64,000 nt of DNA from a bacterium (lineage in GTDB: Bacteria > Hinthialibacterota > Hinthialibacteria > Hinthialibacterales > Hinthialibacteraceae), in assembly GCA_963663405.2 (NCBI GenBank), contig CAXXSM010000079.1:1-64000 (forward strand), given 5' to 3'. The notes under the pieces were generated by a model. It was given only the letters and a program-made list of their open reading frames with translations, ran no database searches and had not been told where the DNA came from. Position 1 is the first letter of the stretch, and each line of letters begins with the position of its first letter. A program made the position numbers and the translations under genes. This document shows, one piece after another, positions 1 through 61,484 of the stretch.

Positions 1-2
1 AA

Positions 3-3000
3 CTGGAAGCCCTGATCCGGTTTGAAGCGCGGGATCGTGTGTTGGAAGAATGGAACAGCCGGCATCCGGAACAATGTCTGCGTGAACAAGTACGCACTTA
101 CATCCGCACACATACCCAATTGTCCAAATCCACCGCCCGGAAAGAAGTGATCGCGAAACATAAACTAAACGCGGAAACCATCGATCCGCTCAACTACTAT
201 CAAGCGGCGGGTGGCAACAAGCGCTACAACCTGCTCTACACGCCCAGCCGCGTCAATTTGGGCGAACGGGAAAGAGATTCCGTCGTCAAATGGAGCCAAT
301 GGGTTGGCGGCGCCGACCGGTGGGCGGCCCAGGCCGGCTTTGAGTTTTATAGCTTCATCAACGAAGGCGGCGTAGAAGAACGGCCCGCTCTCGCCTCGGC
401 GGAAATACAGAAAACCTCCGAGAACGCGCTCTGCGTAACCCATTTCGCCGGCTCGAACGCGCTCGCGCTGCTCTGCATGGCCGTGTTGGAAGGTGACGCG
501 GAAGACCTCGCCGATCAGATGAATCTCCGGAACGACCGCATGATCCCACCCGCGGGTGAAGGCTACGGCGGCTATTGCGTCCCAAAAGACGGCTTGTTCC
601 TGGCCTTCGTTCTCTCGCTGCAGAACGACATCAAACTGCGCCAGATGGGAATCCCAGAACGGTATCATGAAGGCATCATGGCCTTGGCCAAAGAAGCGCT
701 GCTGAAGCAGAATCAATTCGAAAGCCATTTCGAATGGCAGAAATGGGCGGCGAAAAAACTTTTAAAATACACTGAATTGAAGAAATACTTCGATCTGGAA
801 GAAGACCTTCTCGTTTTCCAGGTCACCAAAATCGCCCACGCCGTAGAAAACTTGGGACTGCCTTGGTACGAAACCACGTCTGGATCCAAACTTCTCGCGA
901 ACCTGGCCGCGCAGTGGGGCGTGGACAAGATGATCATCCGCGCCGAACAGGTCAACCGGTTCATGGTCTTCTACAAAGCCTGGATGATCTACGACGCCCT
1001 GCGGGAAGCGCGCGAAGAAAATCCAAACTGCCCAGCGGAAAAAGACGCGATCATCGCCCTGACGGCGGAGTACAAACCCGTCCAGGACGTGCGCTACTCC
1101 ACAGGTATGCGATTATTTGAAATCCTGGCGCAAACCGGCGAACATCTCACCTATTGCATGGATGAAGAAGGCCAGAATCTTGTGCGCCTGATGACCTACG
1201 GTTTCGATCCCGAATCCGAAAATCCCATCAGCCAGCGGGCGAGTGAGGAAGTGTTGAAATTATTGCGCGTAACTTCGAGCGATCAGGAAATTCTGGATCG
1301 ATTGGCCGAGGCGTTCCCCGCGCACGAACCGCCGGGCGATATTGTGATGACTTCTCCAACGATGTCATCCACACAGGACCTGCTCTTCTATACCAGCGAT
1401 TCCAAACTGGAAGAGATTGCGACGCAGGTGCAAGTTGTGTTGAGCGATTATGGATTGACCGAAGATCAAATCCGCGCCAACGCGACAGTCTATGGAGGCC
1501 AGCTCCGGGATTGGGCGGGAATCAAGCAGCTGCCTATTGAGGAACAGGATGAGCTGATCGCCAAAGTCAGCGGTGATATCCACGCGCTCGTACTGCAAAT
1601 GCGCGGACCGGGCCGTGATTATGAGATGGACGTGCAAGGCGTTGACGTCTTGAACACCGGCATTCCATTCCCCGAACTGCTCGAACTCCTGGATAACATG
1701 CCGAAATTGATCGCGTTGATGCGCAACGGCGCTCCCAACAGCGCTCTCGCCATCGCCGACGGCGCCGCAGGCCGTATGCGCCGCGCGCTCACCTACTATG
1801 ACGTGATGCTCTTCTTCGCCGCCTGCGAGAAGATCGGACGCCGGGGCGTTTACCGCGCGATTGGTTTAGGTAAACGCAACATTGAGCGAATTCGCGAAGA
1901 AATGCATCGGCGGAGAAACCGCGCCGAACGCCTGTACGAAGCCGTCGCAGCGGTCGTGCAAGCGAAGAACAAACAAGAACGGCAGAAAGCCGCCGAAGAA
2001 GCGCTGGAACTCTACCGCCATATGCGCGAAGAAATCACCGCCAGCGACGAAGCCGGAAAAGCGCTGCGGGAAGAAGAAAAGATGAAGCGGTACAAAAAAT
2101 GGAAACCGCGTGATTTCTACACCAGCCAGGCTCTCGTTAAGATCAGCGCCGGGCTTCCTCTGCAGCGCCTCGATTTTGGTATCTGGCTTGCAGGGATCGG
2201 TGGGATCTTCGCTGTCAACGGCGCCCCTGAATCACAGATTAAAGAATATAAACAAATCTGGGAAGACGGCGTCTCTCATCTACTCAAGATCGCGAAAGAC
2301 GACACCCCCGAAGCGGCGGCGTTCGCAGACGAACAACTCGATGATCTCTACACACAGATGATTCGTCCCGAATACGCGCCGGAATCGCAGCGATTCGCGC
2401 AGCAGATGCTGGTGGAATCCTCCAGCAAAGCGGTTGAAATGGCCGCGCGCGAAGCTTTGGAACGCCGGAAAGCGCTCAAAGTCCGCGCCGACCGCGCCCG
2501 CGCCTTCAACGACCGGGAAGACGGTTTCCGCGACTCATTCAACGAACAGAAAATCCCTGCCTTCAAAACCATCTGGGAACAAGCGGAAGAATGCAAACAA
2601 GCGATCAAAGATGATCTCAACCGTATTTACGCATACAACAAAGATGATGAACGCCGGCGGGAATTACAATCCAAGATTAATCACACCTTCGGTCAATACG
2701 TCGGCTATACCCGATCTTTGTTGACCCGTCTTACACTCGATATCATGCCCGAATCGACCGCGGATGAACGCTCCGCCAAACGGCAGATCCTCGCGGATAT
2801 CGGCCTAATCTACACCGGCCGGGAGATCATTTTCGAAGATTGGAAAAAACTCGCGGGTGGATACGAAGATATCGGTGGAATCGCCCGGCTCGGAGACGCC
2901 GCGAAGGATCAGCCTGAACTCCTGGATCAGATCGCCAAAGGCGTCGAAGCCTTCTATATCACCTACGCTTTGGCGCAGACCTTGGAATTCTCCCTTGCGC

Positions 3001-5075
3001 TCCCCGAAGAAGTGGATGTCAGCCTCTTCTGGAAAAACATGACGGATTACTTCGCCGAAACCATCAATGACCACTGGTATGAATACTGGCCTTGGGCGTA
3101 TGAGAAAGGTATCGGCTTCATCGATATTCCAAACGAAGAAAAATACAAATTGGCGGTTGAACGGCACGCGTGGCTCTACGATTACCTGCGCTCGCTTCTC
3201 ATCTACAGGACTGAATTGAAAGATTGGAAAAAAGCCGATCAGGACGCCCTGCTGGGCAACTTCAGTGGGAACAAATCGATCGTGGGCATCGGCGCCGGCG
3301 CGCCGACAGAAGTCGAACGGCAATGGCGCGCGTACAACCATCTGCGCGAAATCTCCTTCGTCAAGAGCGATGGATTCGAACTGCCCGAAGTGTTTGAGGA
3401 ATTCGATCCGGATATCATCGAAGCCGACAAACGGGTAAATGTGACCTTCCTCTTCCCCGTCGGACGCACCCACGTCTCCCGCGCCCTGCGGGAAGGCCCA
3501 TCTTTGAATCAACAGATTCAGGATTCCAAACATCCCGGCGTCAATATCCTCATCACCCGCCATGGCCGGTTTGTGGATGTCGAAGGCGCGGAAAGAAAAG
3601 TCCTGCTCGTAGATGACGCGCATTTCTACATCAGTGAATCTGAATTTACCGAAGCGCTGAAACGATGCCGCAAAATGAACGCGGCGCAGATCAAAAAAGC
3701 GGTGCAAACCGCAAAGGATCGCGGTACCTTAACCACCAAGGGAATCCGGATCGCGGCCCGGTTCGCGAAAAATGGACAGGCCACGCCTGTTGTAGCGGGC
3801 TCTCTGATTCCGTTCCACGGCAATCCAATTCTCACAACAGGACAATGTGAAGAAGAAGGTATGCCCCCCACGATTCAGTCAGCGATTTATCATGATCTGA
3901 CCTACGACAAATCGTTGTATCCGAAGATCTACACCAAAGAATCCGGTGTCCAGCTGCCTCCAGAAATTGATTGGATGAACGAATGGAACGAAGGGCTTAA
4001 GCCAAAACAAATCCGCAAGCGGATCATCGAAGGATTCAAAGAAGAAGGATTCAAGGGCCTGCGGGCATTCGCCCAAGAGCATCCAATCGTCCTGATCAAG
4101 GGCGCGGCGGAATCGGGCGCGCGGAACCTGAAAGTCTTCGATCTTCAAGACGATCACGCGCGGATCAATGAAGTGGAATTGGAAAACGCGGCGAACTTTA
4201 TTTATCTCGTCTCCCGTTCCCAAAACGTCGTCATCCAGGCGGCGGTCTTAACCTCGTCGGAATTCTGGGCCAGCGAAGAATTGATGGAGCGTTTCGTCGA
4301 CCGGCAGGTGCTGGAATGGAACACACCGGTGAACCGCGATAGTTACCCACGGTCTCAGATTTACGGTTCCCTGCGTATTGTCGCGTCGTCACCGCATCCA
4401 TCAAAGAAATACGACACCGCCTTCCCGATCTCCCTGACGAGCCTCCAGGTCGCCACAAACGTCGGCCGCGGCGGGATTTTGGAACAATTGCTGGAAGAAT
4501 TCATCCAGGATCAATACAAGAAACAAATCCTGGACGGTCTCCACGCCGAAGGCCCCAAAGTGATGAATGCGATGGCTGAATACGTCAAAAAACACGGCTC
4601 CGAATGGGAGAAGAAAAAAGGCCGCAAAATCGGCGAAGATCTTCGCGGGATCTCGTACGGATGGCCGAATTATCTAATGAGCGACTACCTCGTCAGCCCC
4701 GTCTTTGAACGCCCCGGCCGTTTGGTGGATATGGAGCCGCTGCATAACGAACAAGGCGAACGCATTGGCTCGGTTCCCATCCTGCAAGACGAGAAGGGCC
4801 GTTTCGAAGGCAAGATTGTCAACTGGGAATTCATCCATCTCGAACCCAATGTCGGCATCGGCCTTTGGGACCGGTATAACCTTCGTGAAGAGGTAAACGA
4901 AACCATCAAAAGCGAACGGGAAAACCGTCCCTTCGATTGGAACAACATCGGTCAGAGCGACCGGATCGTCCTTCGCAACTTCGCGATCGCGGGAAGTGAT
5001 TACTTATCCGCTCTATTTGGGAAAAAAGGAATCAACCGCGAAGCCGTTCAAGCAGCGGTCGAAGAGGAAGAATAA
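3..5075 (+). CDS. Very large fusion protein, 5'-truncated by window edge: UDP-glucose/GDP-mannose dehydrogenase-like core + long helical region + C-terminal ATP-grasp-like domain
   Basis: Frame is open from nt 3 (LEALIRFEARDRV) into the 39..5075 ORF. AEIQKTSENA, GYGGYCVPKD and AEYKPVQDVRYS match nucleotide-sugar dehydrogenase motifs. HPIVLIKGAAESGARN, VATNVGRGG and HLEPNVG resemble RimK-type ATP-grasp motifs. Confidence 0.7.
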   Translation: MEALIRFEARDRVLEEWNSRHPEQCLREQVRTYIRTHTQLSKSTARKEVIAKHKLNAETIDPLNYYQAAGGNKRYNLLYTPSRVNLGERERDSVVKWSQWVGGADRWAAQAGFEFYSFINEGGVEERPALASAEIQKTSENALCVTHFAGSNALALLCMAVLEGDAEDLADQMNLRNDRMIPPAGEGYGGYCVPKDGLFLAFVLSLQNDIKLRQMGIPERYHEGIMALAKEALLKQNQFESHFEWQKWAAKKLLKYTELKKYFDLEEDLLVFQVTKIAHAVENLGLPWYETTSGSKLLANLAAQWGVDKMIIRAEQVNRFMVFYKAWMIYDALREAREENPNCPAEKDAIIALTAEYKPVQDVRYSTGMRLFEILAQTGEHLTYCMDEEGQNLVRLMTYGFDPESENPISQRASEEVLKLLRVTSSDQEILDRLAEAFPAHEPPGDIVMTSPTMSSTQDLLFYTSDSKLEEIATQVQVVLSDYGLTEDQIRANATVYGGQLRDWAGIKQLPIEEQDELIAKVSGDIHALVLQMRGPGRDYEMDVQGVDVLNTGIPFPELLELLDNMPKLIALMRNGAPNSALAIADGAAGRMRRALTYYDVMLFFAACEKIGRRGVYRAIGLGKRNIERIREEMHRRRNRAERLYEAVAAVVQAKNKQERQKAAEEALELYRHMREEITASDEAGKALREEEKMKRYKKWKPRDFYTSQALVKISAGLPLQRLDFGIWLAGIGGIFAVNGAPESQIKEYKQIWEDGVSHLLKIAKDDTPEAAAFADEQLDDLYTQMIRPEYAPESQRFAQQMLVESSSKAVEMAAREALERRKALKVRADRARAFNDREDGFRDSFNEQKIPAFKTIWEQAEECKQAIKDDLNRIYAYNKDDERRRELQSKINHTFGQYVGYTRSLLTRLTLDIMPESTADERSAKRQILADIGLIYTGREIIFEDWKKLAGGYEDIGGIARLGDAAKDQPELLDQIAKGVEAFYITYALAQTLEFSLALPEEVDVSLFWKNMTDYFAETINDHWYEYWPWAYEKGIGFIDIPNEEKYKLAVERHAWLYDYLRSLLIYRTELKDWKKADQDALLGNFSGNKSIVGIGAGAPTEVERQWRAYNHLREISFVKSDGFELPEVFEEFDPDIIEADKRVNVTFLFPVGRTHVSRALREGPSLNQQIQDSKHPGVNILITRHGRFVDVEGAERKVLLVDDAHFYISESEFTEALKRCRKMNAAQIKKAVQTAKDRGTLTTKGIRIAARFAKNGQATPVVAGSLIPFHGNPILTTGQCEEEGMPPTIQSAIYHDLTYDKSLYPKIYTKESGVQLPPEIDWMNEWNEGLKPKQIRKRIIEGFKEEGFKGLRAFAQEHPIVLIKGAAESGARNLKVFDLQDDHARINEVELENAANFIYLVSRSQNVVIQAAVLTSSEFWASEELMERFVDRQVLEWNTPVNRDSYPRSQIYGSLRIVASSPHPSKKYDTAFPISLTSLQVATNVGRGGILEQLLEEFIQDQYKKQILDGLHAEGPKVMNAMAEYVKKHGSEWEKKKGRKIGEDLRGISYGWPNYLMSDYLVSPVFERPGRLVDMEPLHNEQGERIGSVPILQDEKGRFEGKIVNWEFIHLEPNVGIGLWDRYNLREEVNETIKSERENRPFDWNNIGQSDRIVLRNFAIAGSDYLSALFGKKGINREAVQAAVEEEE

Positions 5076-5107
5076 ACTCCGGTTGGTATACAATTGGAAT
5101 GAATCGC

Positions 5108-5138
5108 AAAGGGACGTCCATCGGGGCGTCCCTTTTTT
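5108..5138 (+). terminator. Rho-independent terminator
   Basis: AAAGGGACGTCC-atc-GGGGCGTCCCTTTTTT about 30 nt after the stop at 5075. Confidence 0.85.
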
Positions 5139-5157
5139 ATTGATTTAAGAATGAAAC

Positions 5158-5356
5158 ATCGCAGGGATCATCAGAACGGGTGCCCAGGGCAAGGTTTTTT
5201 TCTGCCCTGGCTACATCCCGTAAATTATACAAGGGAAAAAAAGCCTTCCCCTTGCTACCCAGTTGATTGATATATACTCTGTGCGATCGTAATCTGCGTT
5301 TCTCATTACCAGAAACAAGCCCATTGAAAGCGCAATATCGCAGGGATCATCAGAAC
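5158..5356. repeat. REP-like composite element (family I) flanked by a perfect 20-bp direct repeat
   Basis: ATCGCAGGGATCATCAGAAC at 5158-5177 and 5337-5356. The interior 5176-5329 is nearly identical to 39394-39549 and holds two hairpins, each followed by CTAC (GTAG on the - strand). Confidence 0.85.
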
Positions 5357-5409
5357 AAGAAATCCAGCTTACAATAATAAAGATCCAAACACACAGAGAA
5401 TAAACAAAA

Positions 5410-6903
5410 ATGCCCGATAAAATCCGCTTTTTCATTCAAAATATCAGCCTTTCGATCGCCACGATTTTAATCGTGTTCCTGCTCATTGAAGCAGGTTTCC
5501 GCTTAGCTTCACTGTTTCATACGAAAACCATCGCAGAGAAGCAGCGCGCGTTTATCGACGCGCTGGCCGTTCCCTATTCCTATGGTGTGGTCCGGCCTTA
5601 CGTTCATCTGGACCTGCGGGAGTACTTTCCCACCGGCGCTCAAATCGATAAGCCGGTTCTGATTGAAACGAATTCGTTCGGCATGCGGATGCGGGAAGTG
5701 GCGCGGCAAAAACCAGCCGGCGTGATCCGCATCGCGGTAATGGGCGATTCCTGCACATTTGGATGGATGGTAAAAGAGGAAGAGACATACCCGCGGATTC
5801 TTGAAAACATTCTCAATCAGAACGAAACAGGACGCTATGAAATACTCAATTTCGGCGTCCCCGGCTATACATCGTTTCACGGACTCAAGCAATACGAACG
5901 GTTAGTCAAACAATTTAAACCGGATATTCTCATTCCCGCTTTTGGATTCAACGATTCCTATGAAAGCCGGTTTCCCGAATCGGAGTTTTATGAATATCTC
6001 AAAAAACAGCGCCTTGCGGACGGCCTGTCAGGTTTCTCCTTATTCTTTAATGATTACAGCGCGTTAGGAAATTGGATCCTCAGCCGCTTGGCGAATCAAC
6101 AAAAAGCTCCCATCGATGAGGAACTTAACAAGCGGGCGGCGGATCAGATCTGGCATGCGCGGGTGGGGAAAGAGGAATATAAAACCAACCTGCGAACGAT
6201 GATTAAAGACGCGAAGTCCTATGGAGCCCAGACGGTTCTTCTTCATCTCGATCTACCCAACACATGGGTGAAACAACCAATTCACGAATTAGCGGGAGAA
6301 CTGCGCCTCCCCCTCTTCGACGCGCAGGATCGATTCGTTGAACTCGGACAAACAGACGCGTATTCAGAAGCCAGTGTGGATGGCCTGGCGCCAAGTGGGA
6401 TAGAAACAGGCGGGGCGCCGGATGAGTATTCCCTGCTTTTCCGCGTATACGCGCCAGAATGGATTAAGGTACCTGACTGCCTTTACATTGTAGGCAATCA
6501 TTCCGCTCTGGGTGATTGGGCGCCGAATAAAATCCGGCTTTACGACGACGCCTCGCACGGTGACGAACAAGCGGAAGACCATGTCTGGTCTTTGGAATTG
6601 AATATAAAAGAGCCGCTTCTCTTGGATTACGCGTTCACAAATAGCGGTCCGCATGGTAAATGGATTGAGGCGGATCAAATCTACGAAAACACCCAAAAAG
6701 CGATCCGGCATTACCACCACATCGATCTTGCCAAACTCAAACCCGGTTCACTCTGGCGTTCCCCCCTTCATACGTTGGATAAAATTCCCTACGAGCATTG
6801 GCTGGTTCCAGGCGATCCCATTCATCCCAACGCAAGGGGGAATCGGATCATCGCTGAAGCGATGGCGCCTATGATTCAACAACTGACGGCGGAGAAGGAT
6901 TAA
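5410..6903 (+). CDS. Membrane-anchored SGNH/GDSL hydrolase with inserted CBM20-like module
   Basis: N-terminal TM; GDSCTFG, NFGVPGY, GFND and terminal DPIHPN blocks; LYIVGNHSALGDW (CBM20-like) lies before the DxxH motif. Confidence 0.8.
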   Translation: MPDKIRFFIQNISLSIATILIVFLLIEAGFRLASLFHTKTIAEKQRAFIDALAVPYSYGVVRPYVHLDLREYFPTGAQIDKPVLIETNSFGMRMREVARQKPAGVIRIAVMGDSCTFGWMVKEEETYPRILENILNQNETGRYEILNFGVPGYTSFHGLKQYERLVKQFKPDILIPAFGFNDSYESRFPESEFYEYLKKQRLADGLSGFSLFFNDYSALGNWILSRLANQQKAPIDEELNKRAADQIWHARVGKEEYKTNLRTMIKDAKSYGAQTVLLHLDLPNTWVKQPIHELAGELRLPLFDAQDRFVELGQTDAYSEASVDGLAPSGIETGGAPDEYSLLFRVYAPEWIKVPDCLYIVGNHSALGDWAPNKIRLYDDASHGDEQAEDHVWSLELNIKEPLLLDYAFTNSGPHGKWIEADQIYENTQKAIRHYHHIDLAKLKPGSLWRSPLHTLDKIPYEHWLVPGDPIHPNARGNRIIAEAMAPMIQQLTAEKD

Positions 6904-9508: not shown

Positions 9509-12022
9509 TTATGGTTGCAGGAAACGAATGATCCCCCAGGCGGCGGAAACCGGCTCATTCAACTGTTCGGGAGTGACGCCCAAGCCGGACGCCTGTTTCC
9601 AATGCGCAAGCGATTCCCACGGATTGCCGCAGATCCAGGCCGTAAGACCGGCGTAATACCATAGCGCGGGCCTGGACCGAAGCGCTTCTTTTTCCAAAAG
9701 ACCGTTCATCAACGACCGGGCGTTCGGCCAGTCTTTACGAGAGAGCAATTCCATCAATACTTTGTTCATCACTTTCGCGCTTGTCATCTCATCCTGAAAC
9801 TCCGAGAGTCCCACGAGCATCCGTTTGGCCAAATCCATCCGGCCGAGTTGGAGGTAATAATCGATGGTTTCATGAAAGATGAGAGGATTCGAGGGCGATG
9901 TCGCCGCGGCCAGATTGAAAAGCAGTGAAGCCGTTTCATGATCCCCCTGCGCATTCGCGGCCCTGGCGCCTTCCAATACCCCGATTTCGGTAAATCCAGG
10001 GAACCGGAGTTCGGTTTCTCCAAACAGTTCCAGCGCCTTTTGTTCTTGCCCACCCTTGGCGTAGAGCAGTCCCAGCTGCACCCAGCCTTCCATAAAGGTT
10101 GGCATGATCGCGGTGGCTTTTTGGAAGTTTTCAATCGCCGCAGTCAGATATTCCGGTTTTTTTGTCAATTCCCATACTAAACGATACGCCCGGCCGAGAT
10201 ATCCATAAGACTCATAAAATGTATAATCGTTCAGTGAATCGTTCAGGTATTGTATCGCTTTAAGATAGAGTTGTTCATCCCCCGCCCTCCGAGCCTTTTC
10301 CATCGCCGCGATGCCAAGAGTGTATAAATTGTTGCCCGCGTCCGGAAGATAAGTCAATGAATATTGTAAATGTTTATAACCATCTTCAATATGCTTGATC
10401 CGCCCTTGCGTGGCGCTGAGCCCATCCGATCCATACCATGCGATAAAATATTCGTCATCCAGCGTACGAGCTTGTTGATCGTTGATACCGTTTTTACGCG
10501 CGATGTAATCCCCTGTTAAATTTGTGGTAATCGGCCGGAAAAGGATCATGCTGACTCCAAACGCGGCGGGAACAATCCACCAATGAAGTGTTTGCCTGGG
10601 ATTGTTCAGCCAAGCAGGAGCCCATTCCATTTCTTTCGAACAGGCGAACCACGAAACCAAAGCCAAGTTTCCTAAAAACAGACAGCTAGCCGCCGCTTCA
10701 TGAAAGGGAAACGCGACACATGCGTGAATCATCGTGGCGAACGTCGCCGCCGACGCGACAAGTCCAGGAAATGGTATGGGCCTCCTTCGAAAGAGGCTGA
10801 GAATACTCTGAAAATGTACAATCAATAACCAAAAAATGCAAAATAGACCGGGAATTCCTAATTCAGCCCATGTTTGTAAAAAATCATTGTGCGCGCGTTC
10901 TGTATGTTGTCCAATCGGAGGCAGGCCGATCTTGGTTTGGGGATACTGTTCAAACCACTGTTCCTGAGTATAGGGATACTCATACGGCCATGCGGCGAAT
11001 CCCACACCCGTCAAAGGATGATCCGCCACCATTAAAAGAGACATCCACCACACACGGGGATACGTGCCCGACGCGAGAATTTCCGTTGATACTTGAAACC
11101 GGCTGAACACGCCTTCAATCTTCCGTTTGGCGAACGGCGCGTTAATCAACATGATGAAGATGAGAATGATACCTGCGGCAAAAACCGGGATTCCGATCTT
11201 GAGTTTTCGTTTAAACGCGGCGCCGGCCGCTTCCGCCTCATCACTCACCGGCGCGCCCTTCCGGCGCCAATCATAGTAAAGGCCATAGAGAATCAACGCG
11301 AGTGATGGTATAACCGCCATCGCCACGCCCCGGCTTCCTCCATAAAAGATCACAGTCAATCCAACCATGACAAACAAACCGAACAGCGCCTGCCAGAGAT
11401 GCCGCCGGAAAACATGCCACAATCCGATCGCATAGAGACAACCGATCCAAACATAGGCGGTGCTGGCGTTATTGTGCCCAAGAAACGCGCCCATGTTTTG
11501 CCGTTCGTAATCCCCGCGGGAAATGGTCATCGCTTTGAAAAAAGAAAAATCGAGCCTCGGATCCTCCATCACGAGCTGCCGCACACAGGCGAGCGTCATG
11601 CAGAATCCAGCGAAAAAAACCGTCCACATAAATAAAGAACGGAAACGAGCGCTTCGAAAATAAGTCACCCACAAAGGAAAGGCCGAAACGATGAGAAAAA
11701 ACACAAAATAGTTCGAACGAGCGGATGATTGCGGCGCGTATAAGGATCCAATCCCCGCCCAAACCACCAACGCCAATGTGGGATAATAGTAGGGACTCCA
11801 AACAAACACAAACCGCCGCGCCGCGATCGATTGACTCAAATAAAAAAACCACGCCGCGAGCGCGAGCGTCTGTCCGAGTAAATATTTATGAACCAACGGG
11901 CTGGTAAAATAAGCGTTAAAATAGAGCGCCGTCGTCACAATCAGGGTTAACAAACAACACTGCGCGGCCCGCTCAAACAATTGCGCCAGCGGTGAAGGAG
12001 GCAAATTAATTTCTTTTTTCAT
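9509..12022 (-). CDS. O-antigen ligase (Wzy_C) family membrane protein with C-terminal TPR repeats
   Basis: Many TMs; GHNN, GSRG, HPLTGVG, RAHNDFLQTWAELGIPG and FPFH motifs; helical TPR-like tail. Confidence 0.85.
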   Translation of the reverse strand: MKKEINLPPSPLAQLFERAAQCCLLTLIVTTALYFNAYFTSPLVHKYLLGQTLALAAWFFYLSQSIAARRFVFVWSPYYYPTLALVVWAGIGSLYAPQSSARSNYFVFFLIVSAFPLWVTYFRSARFRSLFMWTVFFAGFCMTLACVRQLVMEDPRLDFSFFKAMTISRGDYERQNMGAFLGHNNASTAYVWIGCLYAIGLWHVFRRHLWQALFGLFVMVGLTVIFYGGSRGVAMAVIPSLALILYGLYYDWRRKGAPVSDEAEAAGAAFKRKLKIGIPVFAAGIILIFIMLINAPFAKRKIEGVFSRFQVSTEILASGTYPRVWWMSLLMVADHPLTGVGFAAWPYEYPYTQEQWFEQYPQTKIGLPPIGQHTERAHNDFLQTWAELGIPGLFCIFWLLIVHFQSILSLFRRRPIPFPGLVASAATFATMIHACVAFPFHEAAASCLFLGNLALVSWFACSKEMEWAPAWLNNPRQTLHWWIVPAAFGVSMILFRPITTNLTGDYIARKNGINDQQARTLDDEYFIAWYGSDGLSATQGRIKHIEDGYKHLQYSLTYLPDAGNNLYTLGIAAMEKARRAGDEQLYLKAIQYLNDSLNDYTFYESYGYLGRAYRLVWELTKKPEYLTAAIENFQKATAIMPTFMEGWVQLGLLYAKGGQEQKALELFGETELRFPGFTEIGVLEGARAANAQGDHETASLLFNLAAATSPSNPLIFHETIDYYLQLGRMDLAKRMLVGLSEFQDEMTSAKVMNKVLMELLSRKDWPNARSLMNGLLEKEALRSRPALWYYAGLTAWICGNPWESLAHWKQASGLGVTPEQLNEPVSAAWGIIRFLQP

Positions 12023-15645: not shown

Positions 15646-17598
15646 ATGCTGTTGATTCCGTGGGCGCTTGTCTTTGGATTGGGGTGTTATGCGCAGACAC
15701 TGGTTCTTGATGACCGTCTCTTTACCGGTCTGATTTTATATTTGATCGCAGGCGTTTTATCCTACCTGATTCTTACAGTATCCACAGGTAAAAACACGGT
15801 CCAACACAAAACGGAGAAAACGAACGGCTGGACCTCCACGAAAGAAGTTTTATACATTCCTCTCATCGCCGGACTTCTCTGTGTAGCGGCGTGTGTTTGG
15901 CTGATCCGAGAGGCCACGTTAGCAAAATCCTACCGCGGTGATCTGTTTTCCTACGGGCTCTACTGCTGGCTTGCATTCTGGCTTTTCACGGCGATCGCGA
16001 TACACCGCCCATTCTTCACCGCGCTAAGGAAAGAGACCTGGCGGTCACTGGCTCCACTGGGGGGATTGCTCCTTCTCGCGCTGCTCCTGAATATGTACCG
16101 GCTGACAACGCTGCCCATCACAGTGCACGGCGATGAAGGCATGGTCGGCGTTCATGCGCGGTATATTCTATATGGCAAGCTTCCGACGTTCTTCTCCACA
16201 TCATGGTATTCGATCCCCCAGTTCTTTTTCAGCGTTCCCGCCGGGACACTCTATCTCTTCGGCGACAATCTCTTTGGATTCCGCATGAGCGCTGTTCTTG
16301 TGGGCGCCCTGAGCGTGATTCCCTTTTATTTCCTCACGCGATGGCTTTGGGGAACGGGGCCCGCGATTGTGACCACGTTCCTATTGATCACGAATCATTG
16401 GATCCTGCATCTCTCCCACAGCGGCGTAAATTACGTTCAGGCGTTGTTCTTCACAACCACGCTGCTCGCGCTCTGGTTTTGGACGTATGAAAAACGCTCG
16501 ATGGCGGCGGCGATCGGAGCCGGAGCGGTGATGGGCCTCGCGCTTCTCTCCTATCAAGCCAATCACCTGCTTCCTCTATTATGGCTCGCATCCCAGATTG
16601 GGATTGTTCTTCTGCGGAAGATTTCATTCCGGTGGTTCGTTCTCACCACTCTGGTCCCACTTGCGCTCGCGTTCTTTGTGATCTCCCCGTTGCTCACCCA
16701 CGACATCATCTTAAGCGGAAGCGCCGCCACTTATAGTTCCCGCGCCCAAGGCGTGATCGCATGGACAGACCATAACCATCGACATTTGGATGGAGTCTAT
16801 AAAGCCAACGGCGATCCCGGCCGAATCTGGCAGGGACAAATCCGGCGCGCCTATCTCGCGCCCATCCGATATTCCGACACAAGTATGCAGTACGCCGGTG
16901 AATGGCCGTTTCTCGATCGAACGATGGCGGTGTTTTTCATGCTGGGGATTGTGACCGCGGCGTTTCGATTTTTCGATCCCCGGTGGTCGATTCCAGTAGT
17001 CTGGATTTGCGCGATCCTAACCGCCGGAGGAGTCTGTACCGTGGACGCGCCATTCTACCCGCGTCTCACGGGAACAAGCGCGCTCTATTTTCTTCCCATC
17101 GCGGGTGTTTTCGCGGGTATTTTACGGTTGGCGGACACCGGGAAAGTCTGGAAATGGTCCGCAATCGCACTGATTGCAGTGGCGGCGCTCATGTCGGCTA
17201 AGACCAATTTGCAAAATTATTTCATTGTCTATGCGAACGAGATCAGTCCTAACAACATCCATTATCCACAAACTCAACTGGGCTATCTTCTCGCGAAAAG
17301 AAAATCCGAAGGAGAGGTTGCGCTCTTTTCCGGCCCCCATTTATCCCTGGGCAGCGGAACCGTCCAGTTTCTAGTGAAGGATACCGAAGGAATCACCACA
17401 AACAAAATTCCACCCGGTATAGACGGCAAACCATTCACCATCTTCGTCGACTCGACGCAATCTTCCATCGTCAAAGAATTGAAAAATTTATTCCCCAACG
17501 CGGTTATGGAGGAACATCGGTCTTTTCGAGGTCAGCTGATGTTCACAACCCTCACACAGAAGGGATCAAGTGATACTCCACCAACAAATCTCAACTAA
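15646..17598 (+). CDS. GT-C fold membrane glycosyltransferase (ArnT/PMT, GT39-like)
   Basis: Many TMs; HGDEG acidic motif in the first large loop; LFGDNLFGFR segment. Confidence 0.75.
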   Translation: MLLIPWALVFGLGCYAQTLVLDDRLFTGLILYLIAGVLSYLILTVSTGKNTVQHKTEKTNGWTSTKEVLYIPLIAGLLCVAACVWLIREATLAKSYRGDLFSYGLYCWLAFWLFTAIAIHRPFFTALRKETWRSLAPLGGLLLLALLLNMYRLTTLPITVHGDEGMVGVHARYILYGKLPTFFSTSWYSIPQFFFSVPAGTLYLFGDNLFGFRMSAVLVGALSVIPFYFLTRWLWGTGPAIVTTFLLITNHWILHLSHSGVNYVQALFFTTTLLALWFWTYEKRSMAAAIGAGAVMGLALLSYQANHLLPLLWLASQIGIVLLRKISFRWFVLTTLVPLALAFFVISPLLTHDIILSGSAATYSSRAQGVIAWTDHNHRHLDGVYKANGDPGRIWQGQIRRAYLAPIRYSDTSMQYAGEWPFLDRTMAVFFMLGIVTAAFRFFDPRWSIPVVWICAILTAGGVCTVDAPFYPRLTGTSALYFLPIAGVFAGILRLADTGKVWKWSAIALIAVAALMSAKTNLQNYFIVYANEISPNNIHYPQTQLGYLLAKRKSEGEVALFSGPHLSLGSGTVQFLVKDTEGITTNKIPPGIDGKPFTIFVDSTQSSIVKELKNLFPNAVMEEHRSFRGQLMFTTLTQKGSSDTPPTNLN

Positions 17599-27292: not shown

Positions 27293-28601
27293 CTATATCT
27301 CTTCTGGAACGGTGAAGGGCGTACGATAGTCACCACACAAAATCATGTTCGCTTGATCGTCATCGATGCAGCGTTCCGTTTTCGGATCGAACCGCAAGGT
27401 CCGCTCGGTCAGATAGGCCGCGTTCGCCAAATGACAAAGCGCAGAAGACAGGTGGCCTTCTTCGACAGGCGCGTTCAGGTCTTCTACTTTGCGGCTGCGC
27501 ACGCAATCGATGAAATTGGCCCAGTGATCGCCGCTTTCATCTCCACTAGGTCCTGGTTTCCGTTCACGGCCCAAGTAGACTTGGTACTTGCTGTAACTGG
27601 GAATCACCATATACCCTTTGGAGCCCAGGAATAAGTTCCCGACAACGTTGCCCCGGCTTCCCTCACCCAATTCGTCCTGTGTGATCCAATGGCGAACCTC
27701 AAAGACCATCATTTTGTTCTCTTCCGGGTATTTATACGTCGCGACCATAGTATTCGGCGTTTCCTGGTCGTCGTCAAACATGAAGTGACCGCCAAGACAG
27801 TTGATCTGACTAGGCAGGCCGACATTCAATCCCCACCGGGCGACGTCAAATTGATGCACGCCTTGATTGCCGATATCGCCATTGCCGTAATCCCAATGCC
27901 AGTGCCAGTTATAGTGGAAGCGGTTCTCGGCTGTATGGGCGCTGATCCGCCGGGCCAAGCCATTCATTATAATGCACACCCTCCGGCGGTTCGCTCTCCG
28001 GTGTGTGGCCGATTGTGTTCCGCCATTTATAACACGTGCCTTTCGCGTAATAGACTTCCCCGATTAATCCATCGTGGAGCATCTTCATCGCTTCTTGGAT
28101 CGACGGATTGCTGCGGATTTGCGTGCCGTGTTGGACGATGCGGTTGTACTTCTTCGCCGCTTCCACGAGTTTGCGTCCTTCATAAATATTATGGGAGAGG
28201 GGTTTTTCAACATAAACATCTTTCCCCGCTTGACAGGCCCAGATCGCCATCAGTGAATGCCAGTGGTTGGGGGTGGCGATGGTCACTGCATCGATATCCT
28301 CATTTTGAAGTAAGTCTTTGATATCCGTGTATTTCTTGGGATCGTTCGGAAACCGTGGATCGTTCTTTAACCGTTCCGCCCGGTCGTTCAAGATTTCTTC
28401 ATCGACATCGCACAAGGCGGCGATTTTTACATTGGGAAGTCTCTTGAATCCATCAATATGACTCCGGCCCCGGCCATTCAGTCCCACGCACGCGACATTG
28501 ATGGTGTCGTTTGCGCTCGCTCCCGCGTTAGTCAACACCGTCAAACCAACCGCCGCGCCGGTGGCGCTTTTGAGAAAATTCCTGCGTGTTTCGTTTTTCA
28601 T
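27293..28601 (-). CDS. Tat-exported Gfo/Idh/MocA oxidoreductase; apparent +1 frameshift at ~27929
   Basis: TRRNFLK Tat motif, TPNHWH, DVYVEKP. ORFs 27909..28631 and 27293..27979 join as [28 protein letters not shown] on removing one base. Confidence 0.88.
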
Positions 28602-28767
28602 AATACACTCCATTCCATTCATGAATCCCATTCTCTGTCCGAAAGGGTTTTGTGATTGATTGTATCCCGTATAGTAAAGGTATATATGTATAGGTCAAGC
28701 GGATGGATTTTATTGTTCCCAATATTACTATCTAAGGGGAAAATTATTTCATCCGGAGTCATTATAC

Positions 28768-42582: not shown

Positions 42583-43485
42583 TCAATCCTGTCTCGAACG
42601 GCCCTGGGCGACGATCAAATCCGCCAATAATCCCATACACCCGATCAAAACCCCCGCGAGAACGAGAATAATATCGCCCTCCTGCAACGTGCCTTGTTCC
42701 GAAACAAAATCCATGATCCCCCGGACGCAGCCGATCAGAAACAACATCAATCCAACCGGCATAAAAACACGTAGCGGATTGAAATACATCACCATACGTA
42801 TAACGGTAGAAAGGTATTTTCCCGTATCTTTGATAGGATGAAATTTCGATTTCCCGATCCGCTTGTGATATTTTGATGGGATCCACTTCACTGCGTAACC
42901 GTTGCAGAGAAAAGCCAGTGTCATTGTCGTAACGCATGAAAAACCATCCGGGATCACCCAAAGATATTTCATCATCACACTGCGTTTAAACGCTTTCAAG
43001 CCCGTATTCAAATCAGGAATTCGTTGTCCGGATAAATAAATCGCCAACCGGCGAATCAACCATTTCGCAGGCACGCGAAGTAATTTCATCGTCCCTTCCT
43101 CGGACAACCTCTCACCGTTCACTTGGTCCCATTCGGGTAACAATTCCAACATTTTCGGGATATCGGCGGCGGTGTACGTTCCATCAGCGTCCAGCATGAC
43201 GATCAGTTCACCTCTCGCTTCCCGGATTCCCGTTTTCCGGGCGGCGCCGGAACCGCCGTTGATTTGGCGTTTAACGATTCGTACGTTTTTTTCCTGCGCG
43301 ATGGATACGGTCGCGTCTTGGGAACAGTCATCCACCACGAGGATTTCGTAGGCGTAGTCCGTCGAATTCATCGCGGTCCGCACTTCATCGATCACAGGCC
43401 CAATCGCGTCTTCCTCATTGAATGTGGGAAGAACAACGCTGACTTCGACTGGATTTTGGTCATTCGAATGTTCAGGCATAATCAT
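42583..43485 (-). CDS. Glycosyltransferase family 2 (DPM1-like) with C-terminal TMs
   Basis: VVLPTFNE, VVDDCSQD, LDADG, DLNTG. Confidence 0.9.
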   Translation of the reverse strand: MIMPEHSNDQNPVEVSVVLPTFNEEDAIGPVIDEVRTAMNSTDYAYEILVVDDCSQDATVSIAQEKNVRIVKRQINGGSGAARKTGIREARGELIVMLDADGTYTAADIPKMLELLPEWDQVNGERLSEEGTMKLLRVPAKWLIRRLAIYLSGQRIPDLNTGLKAFKRSVMMKYLWVIPDGFSCVTTMTLAFLCNGYAVKWIPSKYHKRIGKSKFHPIKDTGKYLSTVIRMVMYFNPLRVFMPVGLMLFLIGCVRGIMDFVSEQGTLQEGDIILVLAGVLIGCMGLLADLIVAQGRSRQD

Positions 43486-50132: not shown

Positions 50133-51075
50133 TTAGAGTGATAAATGTTGGCGATACCATTCAATCGTTTTTTCCAAACCGGCTTCGAAACGGATCTGGG
50201 GTTCGTACCCGAGTATAGACCGGGCCTTTTCAATCGAAGCGCAGGAATGTTGAATATCACCGGGACGGGGCGGCGCAAAGACCGGCTCGATATTTTTTCC
50301 TAAGATTTCATTAATGGTTTGAACGATGTCCAAAACACTATATCGCTCACCACAAGCTACGTTGATGACCTGCCCCGGCGCTTGTTCCGCCGTCAGAGCG
50401 GCCATATTCGCCTGCACGTTATTGTCGACGTAGGTGTAATCCCGCGAGGCCGATCCATCGCCATAAATCACGGGTTGTTTATCTTGCAGCATTAGAGGAA
50501 TAAATATCGCCATGACGCCGGTATAGGGGGAATCGGGATTCTGCCGGGGACCGAACACATTGAAATATCGAAGCGATACGGTTTCCAGCCCGTAGCTATG
50601 ATAAAACGCTTTGCAATAATATTCCCCCGCCAGTTTCGCCGCTCCATACGGAGAAATCGGACAAGGGGACAACTCCTCATGTTTGAAAGAAACGTCCACA
50701 TCCCCATACGCTGAAGACGACGCGGAATAGAGAAACCGCTTCACACCCGCGTCCCGCGAGGCGATCAACGCGTTCAGGATTCCCGTTGTATTGTGCTCGT
50801 GGCTTTCCGCTGGATTTTTTACGGAGCGGGGAACGGACGGGAGCGCGGCCTGATGCAAGACATATTCCGCGCCGATTATGGCTTGTTTTACTGCGTCCCC
50901 ATCCCGCAGATCGATCTCATGCAGGGTGATCCGGTCCCGGAACGGTATTAGATTTTCACGAAGCCCCGTAACGAAATTATCAATCACATGCACTTCGTGA
51001 TTCTCGGCGAGTAAGCGATCAATCAAGTGAGAACCGATGAAACCGGCGCCTCCCGTCACTACAAAAACGTGCCAT
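50133..51075 (-). CDS. NAD-dependent nucleotide-sugar epimerase/dehydratase (WbpP-like SDR); apparent frameshift at 51063-51067
   Basis: VTGGAGFIGSH, HQAALPSVPRS, YGAAK, RYFNVFGPRQ. ATG 51075 with GAGG RBS gives MARFVVTGG if one T of a T5 run is removed. Confidence 0.9.
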
Positions 51076-51292
51076 CCGTAGTTCCTCACAATCAAATTTG
51101 TCTCGTTCTTTTCACGATCACATAAGTTAGGGCGATCATAAAAACGTATAATACACAGTAAAAGAAACTATAATTTTAGCCGTATGGGTAATGTTTCGTA
51201 CACCCCCTATAGAAACACTTCAAGATTTAATACCAAAATGGACACATGAAAATGAGCAGCGGCAAAGCTCTATTTTAAGGGTGAAAATGGAT

Positions 51293-60478: not shown

Positions 60479-61484
60479 GTAGCGCCTTTGTAGATGAACG
60501 CTGGACAAAGAAGTGATAAAAATCTGTTAGCCCCGCTCCTGTATAGTTCTTCGATGCGGTTTCAAATAGAATTTCCAGATTTTCATACAATTTATCTATA
60601 CTCTCCCGATCTGGAAATGTTGGGCTGCCGCCGGGCATAAATTCAGATGAATGCAACATAAATTCGACGCAACTTCGCTTTTCATGCAATGCGCGTTGGA
60701 CAATAGCCAGCATCGCATTCAGATTGTTTGTACCCGGACGAAGCCAGGACATTCGCAATAATCTATTCATCACTCGCCGAAGAAGAGAAATGTTTGGCGC
60801 CAGCTTTCGTATTGGTTCAAGCCAAACCCATTTTGTCGATATAATCGTCATGGGAACTTCGAGCAGTTTTGAGTTACCGGGTTGTTGTATGTTGTTGAGA
60901 TCGAGAAAATATGGCTCTTCTAAAAAATGGGTATAATCCGTCCCTCCATTTTGTTCTGGATCCCCCCGCACATCCCGCCAGGAAATATGCGGCGTGACGG
61001 AACAGTCAACCAGATATCCTTTCTCCTCCAGGATCGAGATATAGAATTCATTCAACGCCCACCGGCCGGAACGGTGACTGGTCATTTTTATCCCGAATGT
61101 GTCTTCCAATAACTGGGTCAAGTAATCAATCTTGTCTCGTATGATTTGTGGTGGATACTCGGTTAAATAGGGGAGATATTGATAATCATCATCCGTCAGC
61201 GCTTGAATCGGGGGTGAATTCCAAGCATGCAGGTGCATCCCGATTTCCCCCACTTTTCTCTGTATGACATCCCGGCCAAATTCTTGAAAGACAGGGTCGA
61301 TGGCCATTTCATAATTGGTTAAATACGTTGGTTTGAATCCATAGTGATCACAGAGTGATTGGAACCGGGGAAGGAATGAAGCGTTTTGTGTGGTTATATT
61401 TTTTGGACTGGTCCAAAGGTTATCCCCTTCCGTATCAATGGTTATCAAAAAGAAAGGTGGTTGTTGATCTTTCGTGCCATGCAT
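60471..61484 (-). CDS. WalW-like polysaccharide deacetylase
   Basis: FLITIDTEGDNLW, GEIGMHLHAWNSPP, SHRSGRW, MLHSSEFMPGGSP. Confidence 0.82.
   Translation of the reverse strand: MHGTKDQQPPFFLITIDTEGDNLWTSPKNITTQNASFLPRFQSLCDHYGFKPTYLTNYEMAIDPVFQEFGRDVIQRKVGEIGMHLHAWNSPPIQALTDDDYQYLPYLTEYPPQIIRDKIDYLTQLLEDTFGIKMTSHRSGRWALNEFYISILEEKGYLVDCSVTPHISWRDVRGDPEQNGGTDYTHFLEEPYFLDLNNIQQPGNSKLLEVPMTIISTKWVWLEPIRKLAPNISLLRRVMNRLLRMSWLRPGTNNLNAMLAIVQRALHEKRSCVEFMLHSSEFMPGGSPTFPDRESIDKLYENLEILFETASKNYTGAGLTDFYHFFVQRSSTKALHE

Follow-up and report, generated by a model that had tools for sequence, protein, structure and literature searches.

Can a single polypeptide unite a nucleotide-sugar dehydrogenase with an ATP-grasp ligase and, if so, what would such an enzyme make? 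The question is raised by a giant reading frame at the beginning of a bacterial contig, of which a stretch of 64,000 nucleotides (the window) was analyzed. In the initial annotation the frame was read as an oxidize-then-amidate enzyme that could produce an NDP-uronic acid and couple it to an amino acid for a surface glycan.

The frame belongs to a large, strongly conserved family that extends across many bacterial phyla and of which sequence libraries recognize just a dehydrogenase-like stretch of ~135 residues. Two well-known catalytic superfamilies are paired in this family, an arrangement of which literature searches returned no description. In the dehydrogenase part, the hallmarks of dehydrogenation are gone and the residues of covalent catalysis are kept, and the family thus offers a natural test of how the scaffold of UDP-glucose dehydrogenase (UGDH) is repurposed. 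The C-terminal domain, as judged from its predicted structure, represents an ATP-grasp clade absent from Pfam.

Extent, fusion and distribution of the family

The frame is open at the 5' edge of the window and contains, in one frame, all six motifs quoted in the initial annotation (Table 1). Its relatives are 2,400–2,730 residues long and the full-length ones, among the 120 listed of 161, cover 98–100% of the window fragment; in the closest relative (the L005 protein, 2,679 residues, 74% identical), residue 992 is the counterpart of window residue 1. About 990 N-terminal residues therefore lie off-window, and the dehydrogenase-like part of what was annotated as a >1690-aa ORF, correctly open at the edge, stands in the middle of a protein of ~2,680 residues and not at its start. 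The conserved core comprises, in this order, ~780 off-window residues, the dehydrogenase-derived module, a helical bundle and a divergent ATP-grasp domain. The distance between the two groups of motifs, initially put at about 1000 residues, is close to the ~1,170 measured from Cys192 to Lys1366. The frame is thus read as coding for the last 63% of a soluble enzyme of ~2,680 residues from an uncharacterized, widely spread family; taken jointly with the mechanism proposed below, this explanation is tentative, falling somewhat short of an even chance.

Table 1. Coordinates of the giant reading frame, its predicted regions and motifs, and its 3' flank (residues are numbered from the window edge)
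Feature	Residues	Nucleotides	Strand	Basis or remark
Coding frame, open at the 5' edge of the window	1-1690	3..5075	+	C-terminal 1,690 residues and stop codon (5073-5075) of a ~2,680-residue protein
End of an all-helical region where a canonical Rossmann sheet would stand	1-69	3..209	+	L005 model
Region with homology to nucleotide-sugar dehydrogenases (last part of N-domain, central domain, Cys loop)	70-205	210..617	+	TIGR03026, PF00984, PDB alignments
Ser82	82	246-248	+
Motif AEIQKTSENA	133-142	399-428	+
Lys137	137	411-413	+
Motif GYGGYCVPKD	187-196	561-590	+
Cys192	192	576-578	+
Helical insertion between Cys loop and C-domain motif	206-345	618..1037	+	helices at model residues 401-546
Alpha/beta region carrying AEYKPVQDVRYS, probably C-domain-derived	346-641	1038..1925	+	weak collinear stretch, conserved motif, model strands
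Motif AEYKPVQDVRYS	355-366	1065-1100	+
Long helical region and helical bundle linking both modules	642-1128	1926..3386	+	models A3, A2
Predicted divergent ATP-grasp domain with large N-terminal substrate-side subdomain	1129-1690	3387..5072	+	model, Foldseek, conservation
Motif IKGAAESGARN		4095-4127	+
Motif VATNVGRGG		4449-4475	+
Motif HLEPNVG		4836-4856	+
Terminator-like hairpin (12-bp stem, T-run)		5108..5135	+	33 nt 3' of the stop codon

A total of 161 near-length relatives were found, and a pattern search of the genome collection gave 174 matches, 100 of them coding for a relative. Of these, 80 were kept; they represent at least 10 phylum-level groups and include those of two cultured, non-pathogenic methanotrophs, Methyloglobulus morosus KoM1 and Methylovulum miyakonense HT12, so genetic and biochemical work on the family is feasible. 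At 50% identity there are 147 representative clusters, with proteins of up to 7,944 residues; residue conservation was counted on representatives of 50%-identity clusters and the tree was built with FastTree. The dehydrogenase-like part is directly followed by the helical-bundle/ATP-grasp part in 49 of the 53 representatives of at least 1,800 residues, the remaining four beginning inside the latter part. The same collinear architecture is found in 55 full-length ORFs (>2,300 residues) from independent assemblies, among them two isolate genomes. The fusion of the UGDH-related module with the ATP-grasp domain, as first annotated, is real, old and conserved. An artefact of assembly or gene calling that joined two unrelated genes, a possibility already raised by the annotation, found nothing in its favor and is refuted by this recurrence, which leaves it a vanishingly small probability. 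In a few loci (L028, L029, L058, L070) the gene is divided into two ORFs.

Relatives in the core family of ~2,400–2,700 residues are named, among the matches listed, 'hypothetical protein' or given a generic domain label, and the enzyme family is uncharacterized. When the full-length family profile was compared with PDB sequences, dehydrogenases were the only matches and the other ~2,400 positions had none. PADLOC assigned neither the giant protein nor its partners to a defence system. For the off-window N-terminal 784 residues of the L005 protein, the best-scoring ESM Atlas match (0.83) suggested a zinc peptidase; this reading was rejected because HExxH is not conserved in the 55 relatives.

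The dehydrogenase-derived module

The resemblance of this module to nucleotide-sugar dehydrogenases is, judging from profile comparisons, above chance. PF00984 matches residues 132–201 (E 1.7e-8; 34.9 bits, cutoff 25.4) and TIGR03026 aligns with residues 70–205 over positions 142–277 of its 413 (E 1.5e-14) but the window protein, at 53.6 bits, does not reach the curated cutoff of 189.8 bits; the family profile also matches 3g79_A in the PDB (E 4.4e-8). The Lys/Asn helix and the Cys loop of the family align with the same elements in the PDB enzymes. Ser82, Lys137, Asn141, Cys192 and Lys195 are kept in all 46 aligned representatives, position 196 (Asp196 in the window) is occupied by Asp in 30 of them and by Glu in the other 16, and Cys192, present in 55/55 full-length relatives, is the sole cysteine kept in at least 52 of these. 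The spacings K137–N141 (+4), C192–D196 (+4) and K137–C192 (55) correspond to those of the catalytic residues Lys220, Asn224, Cys276 and Asp280 of human UGDH, as given in a study of that enzyme (PMC3265891).

The AF2 model of the L005 homologue has pLDDT <50 at window residues 77–198, exactly over the predicted active site. A Foldseek search with the model of the module gave no match at E<=1e-3, and UGDH chains ranked no higher than 32nd and 35th (E ~0.5, probability 0.30); the top rows are large helical proteins, such as PEP carboxylase and Mg chelatase H, with non-significant scores and were treated as noise. Low model confidence at the active site, together with the loss of the NAD domain and of the deacylating Glu (see below), would suit a module that is a dead structural or regulatory remnant, the ATP-grasp domain being the sole catalyst. 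This is very unlikely, since column conservation in the dehydrogenase-like stretch (0.69–0.86) is the highest of the whole protein and, with the five residues invariant in 46/46, is not what is expected of a decayed site.

The helical insertion that follows the Cys loop is ~85 residues longer than canonical, as estimated from TIGR03026 coordinates, with gaps and lower conservation at window residues 249–285. Beyond it, residues 346–641 probably derive from the sugar-nucleotide-binding C-domain, as suggested by the conservation of K358 (46/46), D362 (45/46) and R364 (45/46) in the motif AEYKPVQDVRYS, by a second, weak collinear stretch in 4r16_A (i-E 27) and by strands at residues 557–561, 653–657, 756–758, 790–793 and 823–826 of the L005 model (pLDDT mostly >85). 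The window protein has no match to PF03720 at E<=1.

A canonical NAD-binding domain was sought in the upstream sequence of the relatives, where the initial annotation had proposed to look for a GxGxxG Rossmann motif. No such motif is conserved among the 55 full-length relatives, in which the only conserved G.G..[GA] lies inside the Cys loop (53/55), and PF03721 matches 0 of 19 full-length relatives (6 scanned at E<=0.1 and 13 longer ones at E<=1e-3). At the position of the Rossmann sheet, the model has ~230 residues of confident helices and no beta-sheet ahead of the homologous stretch (L005 model residues 35–267, block pLDDT mostly 83–94; window numbering is model minus 207). In addition, the tripeptide PER, found in both 3g79_A and 4r16_A, is matched in the alignment by P81-S82-R83, Ser being present in 46/46 representatives; position 82 is taken here to be that of Glu161 of human UGDH, with which the spacing agrees. 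In the human enzyme this Glu hydrolyzes the thioester, and a mutant study reports a kcat 610-fold lower for E161Q (PMC3265891). By alignment, and by analogy with that mutant, Ser82 would stand in place of the thioester-hydrolyzing Glu.

These findings weigh against canonical binding of NAD by the dehydrogenase-derived module, and an NAD site could come, unrecognized, from the N-terminal ~780 residues. Given the missing GxGxxG motif and PF03721 domain, the helices upstream and the Ser in place of Glu, it is doubtful that the module releases free NDP-uronate through an NAD-dependent oxidation. A working NAD+-dependent four-electron dehydrogenase, which would release an NDP-uronic acid for the ATP-grasp domain to amidate with an amino acid, has on its side the significant homology, the retention of the catalytic Lys, Asn, Cys and Asp/Glu and the ATP-grasp fold at the C-terminus; in view of the four contrary observations just named it is considered unlikely.

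The C-terminal ATP-grasp domain and partner genes

The two modules are linked by helices at residues 831–994 of model A3 and 54–353 of model A2 (window 823–1122, pLDDT >90); for residues 642–1128 the family profile found only coiled-coil noise among PDB sequences. At the C-terminus, a three-subdomain ATP-grasp fold is confirmed at the level of the predicted structure, which upholds the part of the annotation that had been made to depend on this fold. The model (pLDDT 89.7, pTM 0.87) has 78 Foldseek matches in the PDB at E<=1e-3 (e.g., 1ehi_A, E 2.2e-6; 3lwb_A, TM 0.61 on target), of which the best ten are ligases forming D-Ala-D-Ala or D-Ala-D-Lac; further down the list are DcsG and a biotin carboxylase domain. 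The modeled likeness to the D-Ala-D-Ala and D-Ala-D-lactate ligases extends over the three subdomains (Foldseek probability 1.00, TM on target 0.49–0.61), whereas sequence identity is 8–12%; as ~550 aligned columns face ligase targets of 300–360 residues, the window domain must contain large insertions.

Conservation among aligned representatives is nearly complete at K1366 (47/49), S1371 and R1374 (49/49 each), R1458 (48/48), N1486 (47/47), D1561 (37/37), and E1614 and N1616 (31/31 each). The Lys, E-x-N and N-x-G-R-G-G type motifs presumably have their known ATP-grasp roles, and K1366, D1561, E1614 and N1616 are assumed, from motif resemblance, to be ATP/Mg ligands; we infer from these residues that the domain keeps its nucleotide- and metal-binding motifs.

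Sequence profiles do not reach this domain. The window protein has no match to the ATP-grasp families of Pfam or NCBIfam, a Pfam scan of 54 family members gave YheCD once (E 0.12), ATPgrasp_ST once (E 0.26) and no other ATP-grasp match, and a profile built from the family's C-terminal 921 residues found coiled-coil noise (E>=0.014) and no ATP-grasp among PDB sequences. ESM features lead to clusters of the RimK/YheCD type (scores 0.92–0.95). A search for stand-alone or split forms of the ATP-grasp part returned 37 short proteins, most of them on contigs <5 kb and therefore probably fragments, with no evidence of a free-standing form among them.

In many relatives the giant protein is accompanied by a second ATP-grasp, which is the next same-strand gene in 37 of the 66 loci having a downstream ORF; in 26 of 53 long representatives it follows the module within one fused protein. 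This partner matches PF14397 (ATPgrasp_ST, E 4.5e-9), the 'sugar-transfer associated ATP-grasp' family, whose name ties it to sugar metabolism and for which a literature search by family name and accession found no paper. The window ATP-grasp is not a member of PF14397 and has no significant similarity to the partner family (hhalign probability 0.2%, E 0.29), the motifs aligning by eye; of 53 proteins, only two (P0185 and P0195) have a window-type ATP-grasp that is reached by the partner HMM. Of 13 proteins scanned, 10 carry a GHMP_kinases_N domain on the C-terminal side of the module, and the partner kinase matches the fucokinase half of Fkp (E 2.8e-36). Partner ATP-grasp and kinase are unrelated by BLASTP and linked only via fusion proteins; they were counted with separate HMMs. 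GalU occurs near the giant gene in four Methylococcaceae loci (333.4 bits, cutoff 326.8).

The adjacent or fused second ATP-grasp, the fucokinase-like kinase and the nearby GalU point to an NDP-sugar substrate, in agreement with the nucleotide sugar of the initial annotation. This argument is borrowed from other clades, because in the clade to which the window belongs (9 rows, support 100) the gene adjoins neither a second ATP-grasp nor a GHMP kinase, and neither occurs anywhere in the 64-kb window, where tblastn with ten neighbor families gave no match. The surface glycan named as the destination of the product gained no support, the gene being followed by a terminator-like hairpin and unrelated neighbors; positions 4900–5500 hold four terminator-like sites (0.8 expected), of which this hairpin is the sole one on the + strand.

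Two ATP-grasp domains per system, fused in about half of the long representatives, and weak matches of the partner to models of the RimK family and of cyanophycin synthetase (E 3e-5 to 3e-3, with scores far under the cutoffs) could also indicate a polymer or oligomer synthetase, in which the ATP-grasp domains would attach one residue after another, as cyanophycin synthetase or RimK does, and the dehydrogenase-like module would only bind or prime a primer derived from a sugar nucleotide. The regulatory genes upstream in Latescibacterota and Gemmatimonadota loci (PAS histidine kinase, sigma-54 activator and HDOD protein) are counted in favor of this explanation as well. However, no polymer synthetase was matched significantly, and the invariant Cys/Lys/Asn set argues that the module is catalytic beyond binding, so iterative synthesis appears rather improbable.

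Proposed mechanism and known systems

Nucleotide-sugar 6-dehydrogenases (PF00984, TIGR03026), of which the nearest solved members are 3g79 (NDP-N-acetyl-D-galactosaminuronic acid dehydrogenase) and 4r16 (putative UDP-ManNAcA dehydrogenase), have in common with the family a homologous central domain and Cys loop and an equal spacing of the Lys/Asn helix and the Cys-x-x-x-Asp loop, and their C-domain motif is resembled by the K-x-x-x-D-x-R-x-S of the family. They differ in size, the matched solved chains having 418–495 residues whereas the family module is embedded in ~2,680, as well as in the Rossmann NAD domain, which is not detectable in the family, the deacylating Glu, replaced by Ser, and the large helical insertions.

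The chemistry of the initial annotation, in which a UGDH makes a C6 carboxylate and an ATP-grasp enzyme amidates it, has a precedent in the HS:2 capsule of Campylobacter jejuni. According to two reports (PMC11800397; PMC11800379), Cj1441 oxidizes UDP-Glc as a normal NAD+ enzyme, and the carboxylate of the glucuronate is then amidated with ATP by the ATP-grasp domain of Cj1438. These activities reside on separate proteins, with the C-terminal TupA-like ATP-grasp amidoligase of Cj1438 fused to a GT2 glycosyltransferase, and the amidated GlcA is reported to belong to the growing polysaccharide chain. The likeness of the family to Cj1441/Cj1438 is one of proposed chemistry. Both this precedent and GalU, which makes UDP-glucose, near the Methylococcaceae genes speak for NAD+-dependent oxidation followed by amidation. 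Of the oxidize-then-amidate proposal, the fused UGDH-related module, the ATP-grasp fold and the sugar-gene partners stand, whereas the oxidation is in doubt, and covalent chemistry at the Cys, coupled to a ligation driven by ATP, is the likelier activity.

In the reading preferred here, partner enzymes would phosphorylate and nucleotide-activate a sugar, and the dehydrogenase-derived module would bind the NDP-hexose or NDP-hexuronate. C6 would be handled as a Cys192-linked acyl (thioester) intermediate shielded from hydrolysis, and the ATP-grasp domain would carry out an ATP-dependent carboxylate/amine ligation. The predicted product is an amide-linked sugar-acid conjugate, which a second ATP-grasp, where present, may extend further. 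That the protein is a soluble enzyme of ~2,680 residues, coupling Cys-thioester handling of the C6 of an NDP-sugar to ATP-grasp ligation, is a prediction held at slightly less than even confidence.

A more specific version of this chemistry, advanced as a speculative and improbable one, is an ATP-driven acyl-transfer machine: a scaffold devoid of NAD domain and hydrolytic Glu would run only the thioester half of UGDH chemistry, the ATP-grasp domain would phosphorylate the C6 carboxylate of an NDP-uronate, Cys192 on a mobile loop would capture the acyl group and an amine or hydroxyl would accept it, the second ATP-grasp and the sugar kinase completing an assembly line. In some lineages, components of the system are fused in single proteins of 3,000–7,900 residues.

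Gene size and module order

The reading frame at the 5' edge of the window is stop-free from the first bases and encodes 1,690 residues, which supply the residue numbers used here; the six motifs quoted in the initial annotation were all found at their nucleotide positions. The gene is real, with a best relative at 74% identity across the entire fragment and 161 near-length relatives; an artefact is barely conceivable. Relatives encoded on long contigs have 2,363–2,733 aa and cover 98–100% of the fragment (among the matches listed). In an alignment of the fragment with 55 full-length ORFs, residue 1 corresponds to residue 992 of the closest relative, the L005 protein (2,679 aa), so about 990 residues lie beyond the window edge.

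Domain architecture was scored with five purpose-built module HMMs in 53 representatives of at least 1,800 aa. The proposal that the two halves belong to one polypeptide held among relatives: the dehydrogenase-like part is followed directly by a helical-bundle/ATP-grasp part, in constant order, in 49 of the 53, while the remaining four start within the latter part and appear to be N-terminally cut. Short proteins matching the C-terminus come mostly from contigs <5 kb. An exhaustive profile search yielded 147 representatives, some of 3,000–7,944 aa. A second ATP-grasp (ATPgrasp_ST type), distinct from the C-terminal one of the window protein, is fused immediately after the window-type module in 26/53 long representatives, and GHMP_kinases_N occurs farther C-terminal in 10 of 13 proteins scanned.

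Distant family members outside the window (P0163–P0232) reach 5,000–7,944 aa, with 650–3,400 added residues ahead of the conserved N-terminal region and 1,000–2,800 residues past the second ATP-grasp that match none of the five module HMMs; P0183 shows a short CsrA-like match (E 4.5e-8). A D-x-D motif within E..D.DEKR (alignment column 477, in the off-window N-terminal region) is present in 50/55 full-length relatives; such motifs are found in some glycosyltransferases.

The dehydrogenase-like module

Homology to nucleotide-sugar dehydrogenases is significant yet partial, as judged from sequence profiles. PF00984 matches residues 132–201 (E 1.7e-8) and TIGR03026 residues 70–205 (E 1.5e-14; model positions 142–277 of 413), the latter well under the family cutoff. 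The family profile recovers the solved enzymes 3g79_A (4.4e-8) and 4r16_A (2.7e-7), followed by 4a7p_A and Cap5O (3ojl_A), and in the profile alignment the Lys/Asn helix and the Cys loop line up with their counterparts. Conservation was counted in 46 aligned representatives of clusters at 50% identity: K137, N141, C192, and K195 are kept in all, with Asp (30) or Glu (16) at position 196. No Cys other than Cys192 is shared by 52 or more of the 55 full-length relatives. A C-domain is likely present: its motif AEYKPVQDVRYS retains K358 in 46/46, D362 in 45/46, and R364 in 45/46 representatives, and the region is collinear with the C-domain of 4r16_A in a weak alignment (i-E 27); PF03720 finds no match in the window protein.

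In the window protein, P81-S82-R83 takes the alignment positions of PER in 3g79_A and 4r16_A, and Ser82 is present in 46/46 representatives, so the deacylating Glu is replaced family-wide. Glu161 of human UDP-glucose dehydrogenase (UGDH) is presumably the position of Ser82, as spacing supports. The E161Q variant of the human enzyme has a 610-fold lower kcat and traps a covalent intermediate, according to PMC3265891. The NAD-binding domain PF03721 was found neither in six full-length relatives (E<=0.1) nor in 13 longer ones (E<=1e-3). The GxGxxG Rossmann motif that was to be sought upstream did not emerge, the sole conserved G.G..[GA] in 55 relatives being GEGYGG within the Cys loop. The window protein would work like nucleotide-sugar dehydrogenases but is not a member of their family; two defining features were looked for and not found. 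A dead dehydrogenase remnant appears very unlikely.

Nor does an NAD-binding domain stand out in an AlphaFold model of the dehydrogenase-like region (residues 785–1780 of the L005 homologue; pLDDT 81.1, pTM 0.65). The model shows a lone strand in the conserved LH[VI]LTT[EQ]SAGMT, then about 230 confident helical residues and then the homologous stretch; it is unreliable right at the active site (pLDDT <50, window residues 77–198). Foldseek returned no significant match for this model, with UGDH chains at ranks 32 and 35 (E ~0.5), so the dehydrogenase relation is founded on sequence rather than on fold search.

The ATP-grasp module and the proposed reaction

The C-terminal ATP-grasp is recognised by none of the sequence models tried, in the window protein or the family profile; single members out of 54 touch ATPgrasp_YheCD (E 0.12) and ATPgrasp_ST (E 0.26). 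The fold assigned to the last 350 aa by the initial annotation was nevertheless recovered by structure prediction. Residues 770–1690 were modelled confidently (pLDDT 89.7, pTM 0.87) as a helical bundle (residues 823–1122) followed by alpha/beta subdomains, and Foldseek gave 78 PDB matches at E<=1e-3. The best ten of these 78 are D-Ala-D-Ala or D-Ala-D-lactate ligases (best E 2.2e-6, probability 1.00, target TM 0.49–0.61); DcsG and a biotin carboxylase domain are also among the matches listed. An ESM Atlas feature search pointed, as a lead only, to RimK, YheCD, and GSH-S type clusters (0.92–0.95). The motif residues are essentially invariant among aligned representatives. Judged from the predicted model, the window protein belongs by fold to the ATP-grasp superfamily and lies outside its curated sequence families.

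The system comprises two modules with conserved residues, obligatorily fused and accompanied by partners. In the reading tentatively preferred here, at slightly less than even odds, the dehydrogenase-derived module would bind an NDP-hexose or NDP-hexuronate, Cys192 would act covalently and the acyl-enzyme would persist, the hydrolytic Glu being gone; the ATP-grasp would activate a carboxylate at the expense of ATP and then ligate it to an amine. The literal sequence of NAD+ oxidation, uronate release, and subsequent amidation is rated unlikely because both the NAD domain and the deacylating Glu are missing. A bolder scheme, in which the ATP-grasp loads an acyl group onto the Cys and the scaffold performs the thioester half of the reaction only, is somewhat less probable again, and an iterative polymer synthetase is comparably doubtful.

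Functionally, the nearest precedent comes from capsule synthesis in Campylobacter jejuni, where glucuronamides are made by a separate UGDH, Cj1441, together with the TupA-like ATP-grasp domain of Cj1438 (PMC11800397, PMC11800379). No description of an ATP-grasp combined with a dehydrogenase, an amidoligase or a GHMP kinase was found among the papers listed in literature searches covering a minority of subscription journals, so a published account may exist. Nothing relevant was found on a fucokinase with ATP-grasp, nor any description under the partner family's name or accession. Databases name the core family of ~2,400–2,700 aa 'hypothetical protein' or by generic domain labels.

Partner genes, distribution and other window features

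The genes next after the hairpin (see table) are unrelated (GDSL esterase with CBM20, cyclase, S41 peptidase, Wzy_C/TPR protein), and none of ten neighbour families from other loci occurs within the 64-kb window. The neighbourhood table covers 79 loci and the window, L024 being absent from the ORF clustering. Other clades share a conserved set of neighbours. It includes a ~500-aa ATP-grasp (ATPgrasp_ST, E 4.5e-9); of 66 loci having a downstream ORF, 37 have a gene of this type as the next one, in the same orientation. A ~620–645-aa protein whose C-terminal part matches Fkp in its fucokinase half (E 2.8e-36) occurs in 15/80. Subsets of loci have downstream a stand-alone GHMP kinase, GalU (333.4 bits vs. 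a cutoff of 326.8), SDR, DUF2064/TIGR04282 protein, or MFS transporter. Since gene order repeats domain order, the giant protein, second ATP-grasp, and sugar kinase form one functional system. Nucleotide sugars are made by anomeric sugar kinases and GalU, and a sugar-nucleotide substrate fits these neighbours. Upstream genes comprise a PAS histidine kinase, sigma-54 activator, and HDOD protein in Latescibacterota and Gemmatimonadota, and a PfkB kinase (RfaE domain I-like) with a HAD hydrolase in the window's clade (L004, L006, L009); L023 has the hydrolase without the kinase.

Coordinates of features in the window and in loci of relatives (L-numbers)
Sequence	Position	Strand	Feature
Window	3–5075	+	Giant-enzyme fragment
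Window	5108–5135		Strong terminator-like hairpin, 3' of giant gene
Window	9509–12022	-	Cell-envelope sugar gene
Window	15646–17598	+	Cell-envelope sugar gene
Window	27293–27979	-	GFO/IDH/MocA oxidoreductase, C-terminal half (overlapping ORFs)
Window	27909–28631	-	GFO/IDH/MocA oxidoreductase, N-terminal half (overlapping ORFs)
Window	42583–43485	-	Cell-envelope sugar gene
Window	46656–49103	-	Cell-envelope sugar gene
Window	50133–51095	-	Cell-envelope sugar gene
Window	58730–60508	-	592-aa ORF, ATP-grasp region and C-terminal LMWPc domain
L051	14870–18145		Partner ATP-grasp and fucokinase-like kinase in a single ORF, 1,092 aa
L065	15399–18182		928-aa ORF, kinase HMM match only
L077	15399–18182		928-aa ORF, kinase HMM match only

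With one genome per species, the taxonomic scan gave 174 pattern matches, of which 100 were confirmed as relatives and 80 kept; the labels of these include Omnitrophota MAGs, Latescibacterota, Gemmatimonadota, Methylococcaceae, Myxococcales, delta-proteobacteria, Acidobacteria, Planctomycetota, Armatimonadota, Handelsmanbacteria, Rhodothermales, and a Leptolinea MAG. Isolates carrying relatives include Methyloglobulus morosus KoM1 and Methylovulum miyakonense HT12, and Candidatus Hinthialibacter antarcticus has one at 66% identity. In a FastTree phylogeny of 56 rows, the window pairs with L005 (support 99) within a 9-row clade (support 100) including 'Omnitrophota'-labelled MAGs; two subfamilies, longer and shorter, are resolved, with some phyla represented in both. 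Two MAGs carry the giant gene twice, on separate contigs (L046 and L060; L054 and L070), and L054 and L060, from different MAGs, are tree partners, which suggests old paralogues.

The scattered cell-envelope sugar genes of the window (a Wzy_C/TPR protein, two PMT_2-like glycosyltransferases, a GT2, and an NDP-sugar epimerase/dehydratase) do not adjoin the giant gene. The split oxidoreductase may reflect a frameshift or sequencing error. The 592-aa ORF matches ATPgrasp_Ter (E 1.4e-7), CPSase_L_D2 (E 5.3e-7), and the low-molecular-weight phosphotyrosine phosphatase LMWPc (E 7.1e-21), an unusual pairing.
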